From: Bdellovibrionota bacterium
Lineage (GTDB): Bacteria; Bdellovibrionota_C; UBA2361; JBIKWN01
Direction: 5' to 3'
Assembly: GCA_044356295.1 (NCBI GenBank)
Contig: JBIKWN010000010.1
Location: forward strand, 1 to 59,750
Length of the DNA: 59,750 bases
Part shown: piece by piece, positions 52,977-59,750 of the stretch
Layout of the letters: every line of letters starts with the position of its first letter
How positions within the stretch are numbered: position 1 is the first letter of the stretch
Position numbers and translations under genes: made by a program
The notes under the pieces: model-generated
Database searches by the model: none
What the model was told of the DNA's origin: nothing
What the model saw: the letters and a program-made list of their open reading frames with translations, nothing else

Positions 52977-54266
52977 TTAACAACCGCTAAACATAAAATC
53001 ATCTGGATCTTGCACTTTCACCCAAGCGGAAGCACCAAGCGAATTAAGCTTTATCAAAAGTTTTTCATATCCACGTTTCAAGTGGGATGTTTCAGTAATG
53101 GTAGTAACGCCGTCTGCAGCAAGTCCTGCAATAACCAACGATGCTGCTGCACGAATATCTAATCCTTCAACAAGTGCACCACTTAACTTGGGTACTCCAG
53201 TAACAACAGCACAGTGATCTTGGATAATAATTGAAGCACCCATTCTGCAAAGTTCACTTACATGTCCAAACCGACCTTCAAACATGCTTTCTTGAATAGA
53301 GCTTAGTCCATCAGCAAGGGTAAGAGCTGCCATAAGAGGAGCTTGTAGATCAGTTGCAAAAAGAGGAAATGGTGCTGTTTTAACAGATACAGCTTTAATA
53401 CCTTTTGTTGCATTGACTCGAATTGATTTTTCTGTTGTTGAGACAGAGATATTCATTTGGTCGAGGATTTCTAAAAAAGATCCAAAAAAAGCAGGATTAA
53501 TTCCTTCAATTGTAATATCACCTTTTGTAGCTGCTGCAGCCATAAGGTAGGTTCCCGCTTCAATCCTATCCCCTATTACTTTGACAGTGGCTCCACCTAA
53601 TTCAGATTTACCATTAATAATAAGAGTATCAGTACCTGCACCTTCAATACTTCCTCCCATTTGGTTTATGCATTCTGCAACTGCAACAATTTCGGGTTCT
53701 TTTGCCGCACCAGTAATTATAGTCTCACCAGGAGTTAAACTTGCTGCCATCATTAATTGATGTGTTGCGCCAACTGAAGGAAAACGAAAATTAATTTTAG
53801 CAGGGCGAAGTCCGTTTGGTGCTGATGCAAATACAACACCGTGCTTCACTGAAACATCAGCACCCATTTGTCTGAGAGCTTCAAGATGGATATCAACTGG
53901 ACGTGCACCAATTGCATCACCACCTGGCAGTGCAACTCTTGCTGCGCCACCTCTTGCAAGAAGAGGTGCTAAAACCCAAAAACTTGCGCGAAGAGATTTT
54001 ACTAATGAATAACTTGCTTCCGTCGCTATTAACGAAGGAACTTCAATTGTAGCAGTATTTTTTGAAAAAGTTGTATGAGCACCTAAGTGTTCTAAGAGTT
54101 GCAACGTGAGACGAACGTCTTCTAATACGGGAACATTATGAAAAGTACATTTCTCTGAAGTAAGGAGTGCTGTAATGAGTAGTGGAAGACTTGCATTCTT
54201 TGCACCACTGACCTGAATAGTTCCAGACAGTGGACTGCCACCTCTTATTTGTAATACTTCAGACAT
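52977..54266 (-). CDS. murA: UDP-N-acetylglucosamine 1-carboxyvinyltransferase
   Basis: SGAKNA, LPGGDAIGARPVD.H, SVGAT, DRIEAGT, FATDLQA, RGYE. Confidence 0.98.
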   Translation of the reverse strand: MSEVLQIRGGSPLSGTIQVSGAKNASLPLLITALLTSEKCTFHNVPVLEDVRLTLQLLEHLGAHTTFSKNTATIEVPSLIATEASYSLVKSLRASFWVLAPLLARGGAARVALPGGDAIGARPVDIHLEALRQMGADVSVKHGVVFASAPNGLRPAKINFRFPSVGATHQLMMAASLTPGETIITGAAKEPEIVAVAECINQMGGSIEGAGTDTLIINGKSELGGATVKVIGDRIEAGTYLMAAAATKGDITIEGINPAFFGSFLEILDQMNISVSTTEKSIRVNATKGIKAVSVKTAPFPLFATDLQAPLMAALTLADGLSSIQESMFEGRFGHVSELCRMGASIIIQDHCAVVTGVPKLSGALVEGLDIRAAASLVIAGLAADGVTTITETSHLKRGYEKLLIKLNSLGASAWVKVQDPDDFMFSGC

Positions 54267-54296: not shown

Positions 54297-55007
54297 GTGA
54301 AAGAATACGGGGCAGTATATATGAAGTCAAAACCCATCAAAACAGTGACCGCAAGCTGGCGAAGTGAATCAAGAATTGCCCAACAGCTAAAAATAGCTAC
54401 CTTCGATCATGAATCACTTGAGGCATCGCTCTCGCCCTGTACGAGCTGTGCTGGAGTTTGTTGTAGCCATGGTTTTTATCCAGAGCCAGATGAACTTTTA
54501 GATCTTCAAGATATTCTGGACGAGAAAGAAGAAGCTCTTATTCAGTTGGGGGTAAAAAAACCTGCTTCATGGTTTATAGATGAAGAGCATCCTGAATTTG
54601 GAACTGTTAAACGAGTTGCTCTTAACGAAAGAGCATTTTCGGAAAATGTTTCAAACTATCCAAAATATTTTCCGGATACTGCATGTGTTTTTCTTTTAGA
54701 AAATGCGAGATGTGCATTGCAAGTTCTTGCAATGAATGAAGGTAAACATAAGTGGAGTTATAAACCGATTCTATGTTCTTTGTTTCCTCTTGTCATAGAT
54801 GAGCAAGATAACGGTACTATTGCAGTTACCGTCTATGATCCAAATCGTTCAGAGCAACCAAGACCAGAATATGATGGCTTCAATGCAGATACACCATGTG
54901 GAGCAATTCATCAAAAAAATTCGCTTCATACTTTTCCAGCAAAGGAAGTTTTAAAAGAAGAGCTCGCTTTCTTATCTGCAATGAGCGAAAGAACTGAATC
55001 TATTTAA
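54297..55007 (+). CDS. Cys-cluster protein (DUF3109/YkgJ-like)
   Basis: C..C.G.CC, ACVFL..RCALQ, KPILCSLFPL; start may be 54321. Confidence 0.72.
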   Translation: MKEYGAVYMKSKPIKTVTASWRSESRIAQQLKIATFDHESLEASLSPCTSCAGVCCSHGFYPEPDELLDLQDILDEKEEALIQLGVKKPASWFIDEEHPEFGTVKRVALNERAFSENVSNYPKYFPDTACVFLLENARCALQVLAMNEGKHKWSYKPILCSLFPLVIDEQDNGTIAVTVYDPNRSEQPRPEYDGFNADTPCGAIHQKNSLHTFPAKEVLKEELAFLSAMSERTESI

Positions 55008-55095
55008 TAGTAAAAACTGTGTGTGAGTTTTTTTACCTTTAAAATACTTTCAGCACTATCGAACTATCCAGATGAGTATGCCCAAAAGTTGTTTT

Positions 55096-55246
55096 ATCTG
55101 TGGTTATTACTAATAACCACAGTTGGGAATTTATAGTGCAATCCGTGGTTATTATTATTAACCACGGATTGTAAATGGTATTTTGAGGCTAACTTGTTGA
55201 ATTAAATGTGTTTATTTATCTGTGGTTATTGATATTAACCACAGAT
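55096..55246. repeat. Three palindromes ATCYGTGGTTA-N7-TAACCACRGWT
   Basis: Copies at 55096-55124, 55141-55169 and 55218-55246. Confidence 0.92.
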
Positions 55247-55274
55247 GTTGGTTAGGGATTTGGATTTGGGTAAC

Positions 55275-55295
55275 ATGTACACTGATATGTTATCC
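55275..55295 (+). other. attI-like primary recombination site of the cassette array
   Basis: GTTATCCTC at 55289 is the exact complement of GAGGATAAC at the first attC (56109-56117), but no attC hairpin precedes it. Confidence 0.7.
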
Positions 55296-55326
55296 TCTCC
55301 TCGAGATATCTTAGCGGAAATAAAAT

Positions 55327-56106
55327 ATGAAAAAATTGTTTTTTAGATTACAAATATTCTTAATAGTTTTTTTGATTGAAATAGTTTTTATTAATGTAAC
55401 GCCAATTGCGTTTGCATTTCCATCTGTATCCTTAAATGGTTCTGCCATTGAATGCGCGGGTGGCTGGAATAGTAATTTTTTATATTTAAGACTTAGTAAT
55501 GGAAATCAAAGCTGGCTAGAGCCAGCAGCTGCCGGGAAGCTAGTAGGTTCAGCTGGTAAGAAAATTAAAGATAATATTAAAAAGATTAAGAATGATCTCA
55601 AACGAGCAAGCAAAAAGAATAGAGTAAAGTTACAGAAAAAGTTAACGCAGCAAAATTTATTATTAAAACAGAATAGGGACTTAGATTTAGCAGTTCGTGC
55701 CTGCTTTGCCGGAACTGTAGTTGGATCTTCACCTGCGTCCACAACCGGTACCGGTTTAATTACATCTGCGAATTATGCACCTTTTGGCGGTGGTTTGATT
55801 TATGCCTACAATGGTCAATTTTTAGGCGTTCTCTCTTCGAATTTATATAGCTCGGATTCGATTAATAATTCATTTGGAGCGTATGGTAATAAATTTTCTC
55901 CGACTTCCATGTTTAACCAATTTAGTAGTTATGGCGGAAGATTCGCTATTCAATCACCATTTAATCAATTTAGTGTTCAAGCACCTATTGTTTATTTAGG
56001 AGCGCAACCAGTAGCGTATATCACCAATAACCAATACATATATGGTGCTAGAATAGACCCTTCGGAGCTTTTTACTTTTCTTGGGCGTGCAAGTGATATC
56101 CCTTGA
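55327..56106 (+). CDS. Cassette 1: secreted hypothetical protein
   Basis: Signal peptide ending AFA, Lys-rich coil, C-terminal S..N.FG.YG..FS..S.FN repeats. Confidence 0.82.
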   Translation: MKKLFFRLQIFLIVFLIEIVFINVTPIAFAFPSVSLNGSAIECAGGWNSNFLYLRLSNGNQSWLEPAAAGKLVGSAGKKIKDNIKKIKNDLKRASKKNRVKLQKKLTQQNLLLKQNRDLDLAVRACFAGTVVGSSPASTTGTGLITSANYAPFGGGLIYAYNGQFLGVLSSNLYSSDSINNSFGAYGNKFSPTSMFNQFSSYGGRFAIQSPFNQFSVQAPIVYLGAQPVAYITNNQYIYGARIDPSELFTFLGRASDIP

Positions 56107-56110
56107 CCGA

Positions 56111-56208
56111 GGATAACAAAAAAGTCGTACGGAGAAACGGGGCGCGGAATGCAACGGCGATTTCAATTGATTAGCCGCCCCGTTTCCCGCACACTTTAAA
56201 CGTTGTAC
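56111..56208 (+). other. attC site 1
   Basis: R'' GGATAAC ... R' GTTGTAC; arm AAAGT[C]GTACGG[A]GAAACGGGGCG pairs with CGCCCCGTTTCCCGCACACTTT leaving extrahelical bases. Confidence 0.9.
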
Positions 56209-56251
56209 CCCATCATTTAAAACCAATATACTTTTCAATATTTGTAAGTGT

Positions 56252-57331
56252 ATGAAAAAAAGTCTAATTGTATTGTGCTTTGTTGGCGCCTTATCCCTTT
56301 TTGCCCATAGTGAAAATTTGTCTAATAACAAAGTTCAGGATCTTACAACGTCTAATCCTTCTTGGACTAAGCTATGTAGTCTTCGATTAGGATTTCAGTC
56401 ACCAGAGGACATAAAGTTGCAAGAAGAAATAATTGCAGATTTACAGTCACAAAACTATCCAGGTGTTCATTCTTGGAAGCTACGCGTTTTATCTCCAATT
56501 CCAATGAATATATTAGAGAGTTGGAATTTAAAGCAAAGTCAAGCGGGGGACATATGCGCGACTTTTAATCTAGCCATGCATTATCAATATTATCAAAGTT
56601 TAAATATGAAGGAGTCTTTTAAATTATTGAATCAGGCGGCGGATGCTGGATTAGCCGAAGCGGAGTATTGGTTAGGTAACGCATATTATCTGGGCGAAAA
56701 GGGAATTCTTGAAAAAGACCCAAAGAAAGCTGCTCAATTATGGTCGAATGCCGCGAGTAAAGGATTTCCTGATGCAATATATAAAGTTGCTAATATGCAC
56801 AGACTAGGCGAGATTTACCCAAAAAATTTAAAAATAGCCAAAGATTTATTTCTGCAATGCGATAAATATGGAAATCCCCTCTGTGCCTATTGGTATGCAA
56901 GGATGTTATTAGAGGATGATAAACCAGACGTAAAAGAAGCATTAAAATACCTAGAAAAAATCACTCAAACATCTATTGTTTACGGTGAGGCACAGTTGAC
57001 CATTGGTAAAATTCTAATTGATACCACAAATATTGAAGAATTTAATTTAACCGGAGGAATTAAATCGCTAAGGTCTGCTACACTTCTTGCTAATAATGCG
57101 GAAGCTGCTTTGATACTTAGCAAGATTTACTATGATAATCGCTTGATTTCAATCGATCTTACCGAATCTTATCGTTGGCTCTGCGCATATCAAAAAATCA
57201 AGCAAGATGTTGGAATTGAATTCGAAATACCAGAAGATGTTTTTGCAATGAAAAGTCACATAGAAATATCCATAGGTTCAGATGCTGCTGAAAAGATTAA
57301 AACCGATGCTATTACAATCCTCAAAAAGTGA
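56252..57331 (+). CDS. Cassette 2a: secreted Sel1-repeat (SLR/TPR) protein
   Basis: Signal peptide; AADAGLAEAEYWLG.AY..G..G..KDPKKA, AASKGFPDAIY repeats. Confidence 0.88.
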   Translation: MKKSLIVLCFVGALSLFAHSENLSNNKVQDLTTSNPSWTKLCSLRLGFQSPEDIKLQEEIIADLQSQNYPGVHSWKLRVLSPIPMNILESWNLKQSQAGDICATFNLAMHYQYYQSLNMKESFKLLNQAADAGLAEAEYWLGNAYYLGEKGILEKDPKKAAQLWSNAASKGFPDAIYKVANMHRLGEIYPKNLKIAKDLFLQCDKYGNPLCAYWYARMLLEDDKPDVKEALKYLEKITQTSIVYGEAQLTIGKILIDTTNIEEFNLTGGIKSLRSATLLANNAEAALILSKIYYDNRLISIDLTESYRWLCAYQKIKQDVGIEFEIPEDVFAMKSHIEISIGSDAAEKIKTDAITILKK

Positions 57332-57891
57332 AGCAAAAGACACCACGTATTAACTTTGATCAATTTAAGAGTATAGTTGACTACTGCAGAGATAATTTTC
57401 AAGAAGTATGCTTCGAACTAAATTCACCTGTTAAATCTGTGAATGGTAAGGGTCTTTTAATTTTGAAAATACCATCCATAGTTATCGACATACCCCAAAA
57501 CTATCTGAAAGCAAATTACCTAGATACGACTTGTATTTTATTTCACGAACTTGGCCATTATTTTCGTGCATTTGAATCTATATCAACCCGAAGAAAGACC
57601 AAGAGAATAGAAAATACATGTGAGTCGAATCTGATAGAACGTGAAAGTGAATTTATATCTTATACATCCGAAGTGCTAATGCCTAAGAGGCGTGAAATGG
57701 ACGGAATACTCAATGACGAGCAAGATGCCTGGAATTTGGGTTTGTGTGGACTAGATGGTGAATACGCAGATGTGTTTAAAACATTTAGAAGTTGCCTAGT
57801 TGAGGTTATGAGTTTCCCTTCTGCAGAAATTGAAAGCTGCATTAGAAGATACAAATATTTAAATAAAAAATGTATAAATACGTATAAGTAA
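57328..57891 (+). CDS. Cassette 2b: HExxH-motif protein (possible zinc metallopeptidase)
   Basis: LFHELGHY plus downstream E.DAW; overlaps the Sel1 gene stop by 4 nt. Confidence 0.7.
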   Translation: MKQKTPRINFDQFKSIVDYCRDNFQEVCFELNSPVKSVNGKGLLILKIPSIVIDIPQNYLKANYLDTTCILFHELGHYFRAFESISTRRKTKRIENTCESNLIERESEFISYTSEVLMPKRREMDGILNDEQDAWNLGLCGLDGEYADVFKTFRSCLVEVMSFPSAEIESCIRRYKYLNKKCINTYK

Positions 57892-57904
57892 GTATGAAGT
57901 AAGG

Positions 57905-58001
57905 GTACAACAAAAGCCTCGATAGTGAGGCGCGACCGCGCGAGGTTGTGGTGATATTAAAGTTTGATTTGGTCGCGCCCACATCAGGCAAAACGTTAGC
58001 C
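57905..58001 (+). other. attC site 2
   Basis: R'' GTACAAC ... R' GTTAGCC; GCCT[C]GAT[A]GTG[A]GGCGCGACC pairs with GGTCGCGCCCACATCAGGC. Confidence 0.92.
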
Positions 58002-58014
58002 TTTATTCAGTATA

Positions 58015-58539
58015 ATGAAATCTAAATATAAAATATTAATAATTTTAACTAACTTACTAATTCCTAGTTTTAATTTACTCGCTGAGAATCATACTGATCT
58101 GAATGACAGGGAACTAGGTTCATTAACACAGTCAAAGCCCAGTAGTAAAAGCGCACGCCAGCAACTGTTAGAAGGAAAGTCTTTTCGCTGTAAGTTCACT
58201 AAAGGAGTCACCTTTGGCGTAGAAAATCATTCATTTACTCAAGAATTTAGTAATTTCAATAATGATAATCTTCCAATTGACTTTGATAATGTAGATTCGA
58301 AGAATTCAAGAGCTAGAATGATCGGTAACAATGGTGCAGGTGATATTGCAGTAACAGTATTAGCCAACGGAATTAACTTTATAGAAACATCAGGGTGGGG
58401 ATTAAATACATATACAATTTTCGCCGAGAATACAGACTCAAAAGGAGAATTCTATGCAGCAGCTTCAAGGCATTCTTTAATTGTCGGACAAATGACACCG
58501 TCGACATTTGTTGGTACTTGTAAAATTTGGGATAAGTGA
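58015..58539 (+). CDS. Cassette 3a: secreted hypothetical protein
   Basis: Signal peptide; beta-rich with one Cys near each end of the domain (FRCKF...VGTCK). Confidence 0.8.
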   Translation: MKSKYKILIILTNLLIPSFNLLAENHTDLNDRELGSLTQSKPSSKSARQQLLEGKSFRCKFTKGVTFGVENHSFTQEFSNFNNDNLPIDFDNVDSKNSRARMIGNNGAGDIAVTVLANGINFIETSGWGLNTYTIFAENTDSKGEFYAAASRHSLIVGQMTPSTFVGTCKIWDK

Positions 58540-58540
58540 A

Positions 58541-58786
58541 ATGAAGTATTATGAAATTCATATAATGCAAAACAACGATTTAACTAATGGATACAAAATA
58601 TTATTGACAGAAAAAGGTGCGTGCACTGTTTTGGAAGATTTAGAGGAAACCCAAATGGTTCAAATACGAAAGTTAAGTAAAATTGTAGAAACGCGGACAT
58701 GGGGTCAAAAAGACATGGCAGGTAACCCTGTCGGTATCGAGGAATTAGTTGAATATTATTATGTTGACGATAATAATGCCGGTTGA
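58541..58786 (+). CDS. Cassette 3b: small hypothetical protein
   Basis: ATG at 58541 directly after the 3a stop; ends 2 nt before attC3. Confidence 0.65.
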   Translation: MKYYEIHIMQNNDLTNGYKILLTEKGACTVLEDLEETQMVQIRKLSKIVETRTWGQKDMAGNPVGIEELVEYYYVDDNNAG

Positions 58787-58788
58787 AA

Positions 58789-58883
58789 GGCTAACAAAAA
58801 TATCGAAAAGGTTTATGTCCACGTAATCATTTGACTTAATGAAGACTTAAATGGGCGTAAACATTTCATCCAAGACGTCAGCC
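58789..58883 (+). other. attC site 3 (degenerate; R' core GTC)
   Basis: R'' GGCTAAC ... R' GTCAGCC; imperfect arms AT[C]GAAAAGGTTTATGTCCA / TGGGCGTAAACATTTCAT. Confidence 0.78.
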
Positions 58884-58899
58884 AGCACAGTATCAACTA

Positions 58900-59577
58900 A
58901 TGAAAAGAAAACAGAGTATTGATGCACTACTAGATAAAGCTTTGACAACTTTTAACGAAGTCGAATTGTTATACAAAAAATCACTCAACGAACAAGCCAT
59001 TGATGCTAGATTAAAAATTGATATTAAGAATATTTTTGAAAATCTTCGCTCCTGCCTTGATTATTTAGCGCTTGAAATAATCGAAAAATATTTACCAGCA
59101 CAGTCTGCAAAGATATATTTCCCCGTCACCTCTACAAAATCAGATTTTGAAAGTCGAGTTAACAAATATTTTCCTAACTTGATCAATTTATGTCCTGAAG
59201 TTTATCAATTGCTCGATCAAATCCAGCCCTACAACGATCCATGGCTTGGAAAATTTAACAAATTAAACAATGATAATAAGCACCAAGATTTGGTAGAGCA
59301 GATAAAATCAACAGAGAGAAGAGTTGATGTCCGTGATGCTTCGGGTGGTGGTGTGAGCTGGACATCGGGTATCACATTTGGCGCTGGCGTATCTGTTATG
59401 GGCGTTCCGATAGATACCAAGACACAGCTTCCGATAGCGAATAGCATCGTTAAAACTACGGTTACAACCTGGATCGATTTCAAATTTCAAAATACAGGCG
59501 ATTCTGTTTTGTCATTCATCACGGAATCAAGAAAGCGTGTGATCAAGCTAGTTAATGATTTGAGTTCCTTCCTTTAG
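58900..59577 (+). CDS. Cassette 4: hypothetical protein (possible HEPN-like fold)
   Basis: Helical N-terminus with ENLRSCLDYLA, IYFP and LNNDNKH. Confidence 0.78.
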   Translation: MKRKQSIDALLDKALTTFNEVELLYKKSLNEQAIDARLKIDIKNIFENLRSCLDYLALEIIEKYLPAQSAKIYFPVTSTKSDFESRVNKYFPNLINLCPEVYQLLDQIQPYNDPWLGKFNKLNNDNKHQDLVEQIKSTERRVDVRDASGGGVSWTSGITFGAGVSVMGVPIDTKTQLPIANSIVKTTVTTWIDFKFQNTGDSVLSFITESRKRVIKLVNDLSSFL

Positions 59578-59581
59578 GCCT

Positions 59582-59680
59582 GGCTAACAAAAAACGCCAC
59601 GCAGAATTGTAACCCATGGAGTTTTTTACATGATTAGAAGTCCCGTTTGGGTTACAATCTGGTGCGTTAAAACGTTATCC
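59582..59680 (+). other. attC site 4
   Basis: R'' GGCTAAC ... R' GTTATCC; AACGC[C]AC[G]CAGA[A]TTGTAACCCA pairs with TGGGTTACAATCTGGTGCGTT. Confidence 0.92.
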
Positions 59681-59749
59681 CTTTCTACCAAATCCAATGG
59701 GTTTCTTTTTACTGGTAGCAGACGGAGCCATTAATTGTTGAATTGCAAA
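59675..59749 (-). CDS. 3' end of a probable ORF6N-domain DNA-binding protein (partial)
   Basis: Manual translation FAIQQLMAPSATSKKKPIGFGRKG* resembles the F.AI.QLM.P....K..IGF tail of ORF6N proteins; only 24 codons visible. Confidence 0.55.
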   Translation of the reverse strand, partial: FAIQQLMAPSATSKKKPIGFGRKG

Positions 59750-59750
59750 T

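Follow-up and report, generated by a model that had tools for sequence, protein, structure and literature searches.

A probable satellite integron platform served in trans by a distant integrase in a Bdellovibrionota genome

The DNA analyzed here is a stretch of 59,750 nt (the window) from a Bdellovibrionota bacterium, in which an array of integron gene cassettes with an attI site at its head, and no integrase gene (intI) beside it, follows a chromosomal gene of the DUF3109 family. The window is the entire contig C51 of the source genome G000 (GCA_044356295.1; 2.96 Mb, 128 contigs, 93.6% complete); its right edge is therefore an assembly end, and the end of the array lies elsewhere. Sequence comparisons indicate that the locus is probably a satellite capture platform served in trans by the integrase IntI encoded on contig C38, and it is one of several such platforms in this genome. 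Service in trans and clean loss of intI had both been offered in the initial annotation; the former is now better supported by the intact intI on C38, near-identical attI sites, recurring attC types, a common cassette junction and the lack of an intI remnant.

A profile search of the whole genome gave a single IntI match above the TIGR02249 cut-off (429 bits vs 265), at C38:54143-55075, which confirmed that no intI lies by the window array. The match has no stops, and the protein of 358 amino acids (aa) contains the IntI insertion and the R, K, HxxR, H and Y strings, which we take to be the catalytic motifs of IntI. The other three TIGR02249 matches (20–50 bits) came from two other tyrosine recombinases, and a wider search with this IntI gave 80 distant integrases with 46–57% identity. 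On C38, an ordinary array with at least 12 attC sites runs divergently from intI, and its cassette core matches are 7/7 in 11 of 12 cases and 6/7 in one. The window has an attI heading its array and no intI adjoining it. Between the DUF3109 stop codon (55007) and the crossover G|TT (55289) lie 281 bp free of open reading frames (ORFs) of at least 50 aa, in agreement with the approximately 280 bp of non-coding DNA described before. The first 76 bp of these (55008-55083) form a spacer without detectable intI remnant: its best local match was at chance level (279 of 2000 shuffles as good), and tblastn of IntI against C51 gave no match. A short resemblance to the intI start in the spacer was dismissed as equally due to chance (279 and 830 of 2000 shuffles as good).

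At the head of the array stands a copy of the C38 intergenic DNA that separates intI from the first cassette; the copied part begins 25 nt upstream of the C38 intI start codon. This copied attI module occupies 55084-55291 (plus strand), and 55084-55295 is 92.5% identical to C38:55161-55372 over 212 bp, while only 11 of the 40 nt to its left match C38. The 15 mismatches in 208 nt are unevenly spread, with 14 in the distal 126 nt and one in the proximal 82 nt (Fisher p 0.006). The module bears three palindromes of the pattern GTGGTTA-N7-TAACCAC (55100-55120, 55145-55165 and 55222-55242; 3 in the window vs 0 in 100 shuffles), of which the second extends to a 15-pair stem at 55137-55173 and the third is also retained in a shortened copy on contig C70; at 1 of 54 palindrome arm positions the window and C38 differ. 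The scarcity of mismatches in the arms and in the proximal 82 nt would fit selection or conversion acting on the working part. The attI core itself (55270-55295, plus strand, with a putative left limit) has its crossover at G55289/T55290, where homology to C38 stops after 50 nt of 98% identity, and the end of cassette 1 complements its GTTATCC at 7/7 positions. The first GTT had been described as attI-like and hairpin-free; it does belong to an attI copy, but it closes a 28-nt inverted repeat, which is too short for an attC and has no L boxes.

The four attC sites of even size reported earlier are present: attC1 at 56111-56208 (98 bp), attC2 at 57905-58001 (97 bp), the weaker attC3 at 58789-58883 (95 bp) and attC4 at 59582-59680 (99 bp). 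All four types recur in the C38 array, with identities of 93.8% (attC1, to C38:56699-56794), 92.3%, 83.5% and 92.6%, respectively. The bottom-strand folds of attC1, attC2 and attC4 were better than those of shuffled sequences (z −3.6, −2.7 and −2.8; 0, 0 and 1 of 200 as good); that of attC3, whose crossover is GTC as noted before, was not (z −0.4; 62 of 200 as good). When the four sites were aligned with 11 C38 sites, 93% of the stem cells were paired and 12 of 17 pairs carried two-sided changes, a level of pairing and covariation reached by none of 500 shuffles and to be compared with 52.5% pairing in the best slid control; the stem structure was taken from the same aligned sequences, which favours this statistic. 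A covariance model scored the four sites at 71–89 bits, which is circular, as the model was built from them. The extrahelical bases held for three sites, the extra C in L'' and the neighbouring extra A being legible in attC1, attC2 and attC4, but blurred in attC3. Likewise, the claimed match between the start of each cassette and its own end core is complete for cassettes 1 to 3 (7/7 each) and reaches 6/7 in cassette 4.

The two arrays also have cassette sequence in common. Cassette 5 is truncated at the edge of the contig; the part present (59675-59750, plus strand) is identical to C38:58133-58209 (77/77) and 87% identical to C128:93185, and one cassette junction is identical letter for letter between window and C38. 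The corresponding C38 cassette (58133-58875) has a 91% copy on C128. A comparison of the locus in the sister species G002, of the kind proposed in the initial annotation, found it empty: murA, the DUF3109 gene and a dinB-like gene are neighbours there, with a DUF3109-dinB gap of 25 bp and no attC between them. In G000, the dinB-like gene closes the C38 array. Because of this, the identity of cassette 5 and the DUF3109-dinB adjacency in G002, the window array likely continues via C38:58133-65116 to dinB; most likely this makes an insert of approximately 11.6 kb that holds around 12 cassettes and lacks intI at the distal side, the right end being deduced across a contig break. C38 would then probably combine the left portion of the intI array with the right portion of the window array at the common cassette (C38:58133, window 59674), either as a mis-join at a duplicated cassette or as a real exchange between arrays; a join of this type at 58133 also appeared in one sequencing run (X2). 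That contig C15 holds the real right end of the intI array was considered and set aside, since its support was weak (a single neighbour in the relative G001, 36.6% identity).

Beyond the window, four further attI copies without intI were found. A profile of the attI end matched C38, C51, C70, C128 and C69 (E 4e-20 to 1e-8), the five sequences that seeded it, and additionally a decayed copy within one of the arrays, on C87 (E 0.21), which was also found by BLAST. In the final 50 nt, identity to C38 is 98% for C51 and 96% for C70, whereas C128, C69 and C87 reach 68–72%, and 76% among themselves. By these sequences the copies fall into two generations, C38/C51/C70 and the older C128/C69/C87, of which C128 and C69 head cassettes. 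In the C70 module, palindromes 1 and 3 are fused and the left edge is unchanged. The first cassettes at C51, C70, C128 and C69 each match their own ends 7/7. In this genome, one intact IntI and its native attI are accompanied by two close attI copies and three older ones. The older C69 copy (C69:46325-46420) has the same left edge; another inverted repeat stands where the three palindromes would be.

Sequencing runs were inspected for the same sequences. Two lake-water runs (X1 and X2) hold about 0.9 of the stretch; one of them may be the source, and the two are perhaps not independent. The shares in runs X3 to X14 are small (0.06–0.19) and patchy in X3 and X4. In X2, the window and C38 module variants are both present at depths of 4.3 and 4.5, and in X1 three exits from the attI core (depths 6.3, 6.3 and 9.7) fit the first cassettes of window, C38 and C70. 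A single record in X3 spans the short C70 module into its cassette, and in X1 and X2 the DUF3109 flank is continuous into the module on long contigs. These data support that the attI copies are real and coexist. Two joints (55293 to 59647 and 55295 to 59586) that could have reflected cassette excision are better explained as the C70 and C38 copies, and a 151-nt record in X4 joining an attC4-type end to cassette 5 was not counted (17 letters on one side, depth 2.2).

The sites of the other close copies were also compared with G002: the C70 site is empty, nrdB adjoining uvrD with no attC, and the C38 locus has no intI, which in this genome lies at a different place than in G000. An IntI above the cut-off was present in 13 of 41 genomes searched, G000 included. 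Three of the other 12 carriers, chosen by matches to the attC model (3 of 5 scanned), were tested for additional attI copies, and all three had extra copies of their own attI region with cassettes behind them; these genomes are kin, and the sample is small and non-independent. In G040, a single contig whose intI contains one internal stop, an 85% attI copy lies at 757109 and intI at 2268717, about 0.77 Mb apart round the circle and 1.5 Mb linearly, and the first cassette matches 7/7. G013 has attI copies at 8 places, with no intI ORF within 1.5 kb of the 7 loci listed, and G022 has one extra copy on the far side of intI. G002 carries its own attI type in at least two copies (C190:8030-8272, locus L070, and C243:16433-16618). 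In G010, an attI-like head with related palindromes and cassettes occurs without an IntI above the cut-off.

Some arrangements in these relatives stand apart. One G013 region (C8:55209-65322, L203) has four tandem attI modules within 10 kb with genes after each, one module interrupting an attC, and in G022 (C13:93491-96033, L204) a second attI module with two cassettes lies past the 3' end of intI and faces it, so that an attI array is found on both sides. An intI-less array follows rpmB in both G000 (C128:89647) and G002, with unrelated attI and different first cassettes; when the C128 attI was searched in G001 and G002, only chance-level matches were obtained. katG was dropped as a marker of the orthologous C70 locus, because nrdB adjoins uvrD directly in G002 and katG travels with an array: together with a regulator gene it comes last in cassette arrays of both species (G000 C70:146120-148823; G002 C35:15564-18952), followed in G002 by a weak attC-like site (E 0.007). 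Several cassette proteins (L068-L075, L207) are 95–100% identical between G000 and G002 or G001, compared with mostly 63–93% for core genes, which points to recent cassette exchange across species, as judged from the sequences.

For the window, we propose that a copy of the attI region without intI sits between the DUF3109 gene and probably dinB and heads its own cassette array. IntI from C38 would diffuse to it, insert cassettes by the ordinary attC x attI reaction and excise them by attC x attC recombination, so that the cell would hold several first-position slots that a single enzyme fills from a common cassette pool. More tentatively, the platform may have been founded by copying of the attI module, with or without cassettes, from the intI locus or another satellite after the split of the sister species. 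Several observations weigh against the proposal of a platform served in trans. No Pc, the cassette promoter, was located at the window attI (1 sigma-70-like match vs 2.5 expected). No alternative first cassette appeared at this attI in runs X1 to X4 among the matches listed; rare variants are lost from run contigs, and good coverage of the site was limited to X1 and X2. The module DNA was absent from 40 of 40 relatives, none of them conspecific, and an exact 22-mer of it gave 0 matches in metagenome and genome collections. G001 (62% complete) had no DUF3109 match and other dinB neighbours, so that the evidence for an empty site comes from one relative.

How such a module came to be copied can be approached from its left edge, which reads AAAAG/TT in C38, C51, C69 and C87, AAAAA/TT in C70, and AAG/TT in G013 relative to its intI copy. 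An edge at G/TT, which falls at 55088 in the window and at 55165 in C38, is expected if IntI cut at a secondary site, and IntI1 is described to use secondary sites (PMC10127599, consulted in part). Founding by IntI recombination at such a secondary G/TT is a plausible route to which we would give somewhat less than an even chance. Identity passes the G/TT cut by 5–6 nt, the G013 satellites reach further left, sharing about 250 nt more with one another, and one of them interrupts an attC away from GTT, and G040 and G022 have no sharp G/TT edge; all this speaks against such a cut, as does the report, in the parts covered, that attI1 as donor hardly recombines with genome sites (Loot et al., 10.1101/2022.09.11.507474). 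An inverted repeat has its outer end at this left edge, which could then reflect no more than the limit of the DNA under selection. Insertion of a whole integron, with deletion of intI or gene conversion afterwards, is a tentative second route, and homologous or repeat-driven recombination a more doubtful third.

A bolder extension, for which we see a rather low probability, is that attI plus its regulatory module is a unit moved by IntI and that integrons seed their own landing pads. Recombination of a secondary G/TT upstream of intI with a downstream attC would release a circle with attI and cassettes and without intI; the circle would insert elsewhere and found a working platform, and replicative resolution would keep the donor intact. 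If this were true, each incoming integrase would seed a fresh generation, seen here as 94–98% copies over an older set of about 70%, and many arrays filed as dead would be live acceptor platforms.

Other histories of the locus have to be weighed against service in trans. A complete integron, either a duplicate of that on C38 or an earlier seat of the same intI, may have lost its intI by deletion, leaving an array that is perhaps still used. Loss of intI is given as a source of integrase-less arrays by Cury et al. (PMC4889954, in the parts consulted), integrons do move in this genus, as the different intI loci of G000 and G002 illustrate, in G040 the similarity of the copy extends up to near the intI start region or into it, and G010 has the attI-like head and cassettes with no IntI above the cut-off. 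This course of events is nevertheless unlikely for the window: the 76-bp spacer is without intI trace, the identical left edges of C51, C70 and C69 would require repeated deletions ending at one place, and the three loci with current-type attI are all integron-free in G002. Alternatively, a platform loaded in the past might now be inert, its attI copy being kept as a promoter only or by conversion from C38. The invariant head in the four runs and the decay of attC3 would agree with this, and conversion could also account for the conserved proximal 82 nt. Yet attC1, attC2 and attC4 are intact and 92–94% identical to sites of the intI array, the junction of cassette 5 is the same as one in that array, and the core match of the first cassette is perfect, which makes an inert platform quite improbable.

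The least credible of these histories, to which we attach hardly any weight, is that the assembler or a single rearrangement parted an ordinary integron from its intI. The assembly is fragmented into 128 contigs, the window ends within a cassette common to C38, and synteny suggests that C38 joins parts of two arrays. A split, however, cannot yield a second attI. The two module variants occur at equal depth in X2, the long contigs of X1 and X2 run from the DUF3109 flank into the module, the identical stretch common to the module copies is only 74 nt, below read length, and the same layout is found in the single-contig genome G040.

A sedentary chromosomal integron consists of intI with its promoter PintI, Pc, attI and the cassette array. 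The C38 locus is of this kind, and the window shares its attI and attC families and its junction rule; it differs in that the sedentary integron has intI in cis, whereas the window module starts 25 nt upstream of a would-be intI start codon. The comparisons with published work that follow refer to the parts of each paper covered. By definition, the window array is an attC-site cluster that lacks an integron-integrase (CALIN; PMC4889954): it has four clustered attC sites supported by fold, covariation and core matches, and no intI beside them, as the sole IntI lies on C38, none is on C51 and the probable right end is the dinB-like gene. CALINs are likewise defined by at least two attC sites without a nearby intI, and their genomes often encode an IntI elsewhere (PMC4889954); their cassettes can be mobilised in trans (PMC4889954, PMC9668308, 10.1101/2025.06.18.660453). 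The definition leaves out attI, which could not be searched for, and CALINs are treated as cassette donors or as remnants cut off from Pc (PMC4889954), whereas the window array has its own attI and can be an acceptor, and several attI-headed arrays occur per genome.

Insertion at attG sites, which gives rise to single attC sites lacking integron-integrase (SALINs) and small CALINs (10.1101/2022.09.11.507474), similarly involves IntI acting away from its locus and founding chromosomal arrays. An attG is a bare GWT (W, A or T) in host DNA (10.1101/2022.09.11.507474), whereas at the window head 200 bp from the attI region of the integron itself are copied; the first cassette is joined to this copy and not to an unrelated host GWT. 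In Delta-attI-type cassettes of class 1 and class 2 mobile integrons, displaced attI parts are used by IntI1, including attI-gene-attI units (PMC12901181). Those pieces lie within mobile-integron arrays beside intI (PMC12901181), while here whole modules head separate chromosomal arrays; nearest to the Delta-attI type are the internal copies in C87 and G013 C8. The second-locus CALINs of Xanthomonas occupy fixed loci away from the sole intI and are conserved across species (10.1101/2025.06.18.660453), comparable to the rpmB locus of G000 and G002; an attI at the array head is not reported in the parts of that source covered. Environmental attI sites are diverse (PMC3146285). Among the literature titles and abstract openings searched, which included few subscription papers, we found no description of several chromosomal attI platforms per integrase.

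Expression in large integrons is confined to the cassettes close to attI and Pc. If one integrase served several attI platforms, first-position slots would be multiplied with no need for further integrase genes. Satellite platforms would also give an origin and a function to part of the many CALINs, most of which have no intI pseudogene (PMC4889954). Detection tools miss such platforms because attI sites not known beforehand are outside their search. The genome studied here is a clean case, with an intact integrase, near-identical attI sites, two copy generations and empty sister loci.

The palindromes of the module were considered as LexA boxes of the SOS response, and this was rejected: 6 of 8 exact genome matches lie within the two attI modules of window and C38, and none is found at the lexA-recA or dinB promoters, which bear a different direct-repeat motif. 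That they are binding sites of the integrase or of a repressor is a guess. A weak microRNA match in Rfam (E 0.034; 26 bits vs a gathering score of 90) was attributed to the palindromes. The direct repeat GAA-N8-GAA just upstream of lexA (C104:18594-18617 region) and dinB (C38:66401-66424) is a candidate SOS box of this order. It also occurs upstream of intI at 4 of 12 relatives' loci (also L026, L173, L174, L175 and L180); its 3 genome matches vs 0–2 in five shuffles are a biased count, as the pattern was built from the same sites.

The identification of the two genes on the left flank was upheld by Pfam and phmmer. murA (52977-54266, minus strand) matched a solved MurA (phmmer, E 1.5e-109) and keeps its order in G002, and the DUF3109 gene (54297-55007, plus strand; PF11307, 36 bits vs a cut-off of 33.5) has a G002 ortholog of 75% identity. 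The complete cassettes are all read from the plus strand. Cassette 1 (55290-56202) carries attC1 and a 259-aa ORF (55327-56106). Cassette 2 (56203-57995), with attC2, encodes a Sel1-repeat protein (56252-57331; PF08238, 43.6 bits) and a 187-aa ORF (57328-57891); this partner gene encodes an HExxH motif and matches capP weakly (E 5e-4). Cassette 3 (57996-58877) carries attC3, a 174-aa ORF (58015-58539) and a short ORF ending at 58786, and cassette 4 (58878-59674) carries attC4 and a 225-aa ORF (58900-59577). No family was found for the proteins of cassettes 1, 3 and 4 in Pfam, NCBIfam or PADLOC; Atlas matches of the cassette 1 protein stayed below 0.8, and the cassette 4 protein had an Atlas feature score of 0.97 to an unnamed cluster of 151. 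The C38 cassette that starts like cassette 5 carries a 185-aa gene on the opposite strand, whose product matches the PADLOC candidate PDC-S05 (E 1e-50).

Repeats were also observed within and near the arrays. An IS3-like insertion element, so labelled from reading its translation (C125:8140-9359, C15:1-127, C25:1-127), ends inside attC sites of at least two arrays, and a second repeated end lies likewise inside attC at C125:1-115 and on C8, C91 and C106. These repeats, possibly attC-targeting insertion sequences, break the assembly. Dispersed hairpin repeats of two families, present in dozens of copies, occur on many contigs, some of them by arrays (C38:66466-66569, C12:14945-15075).

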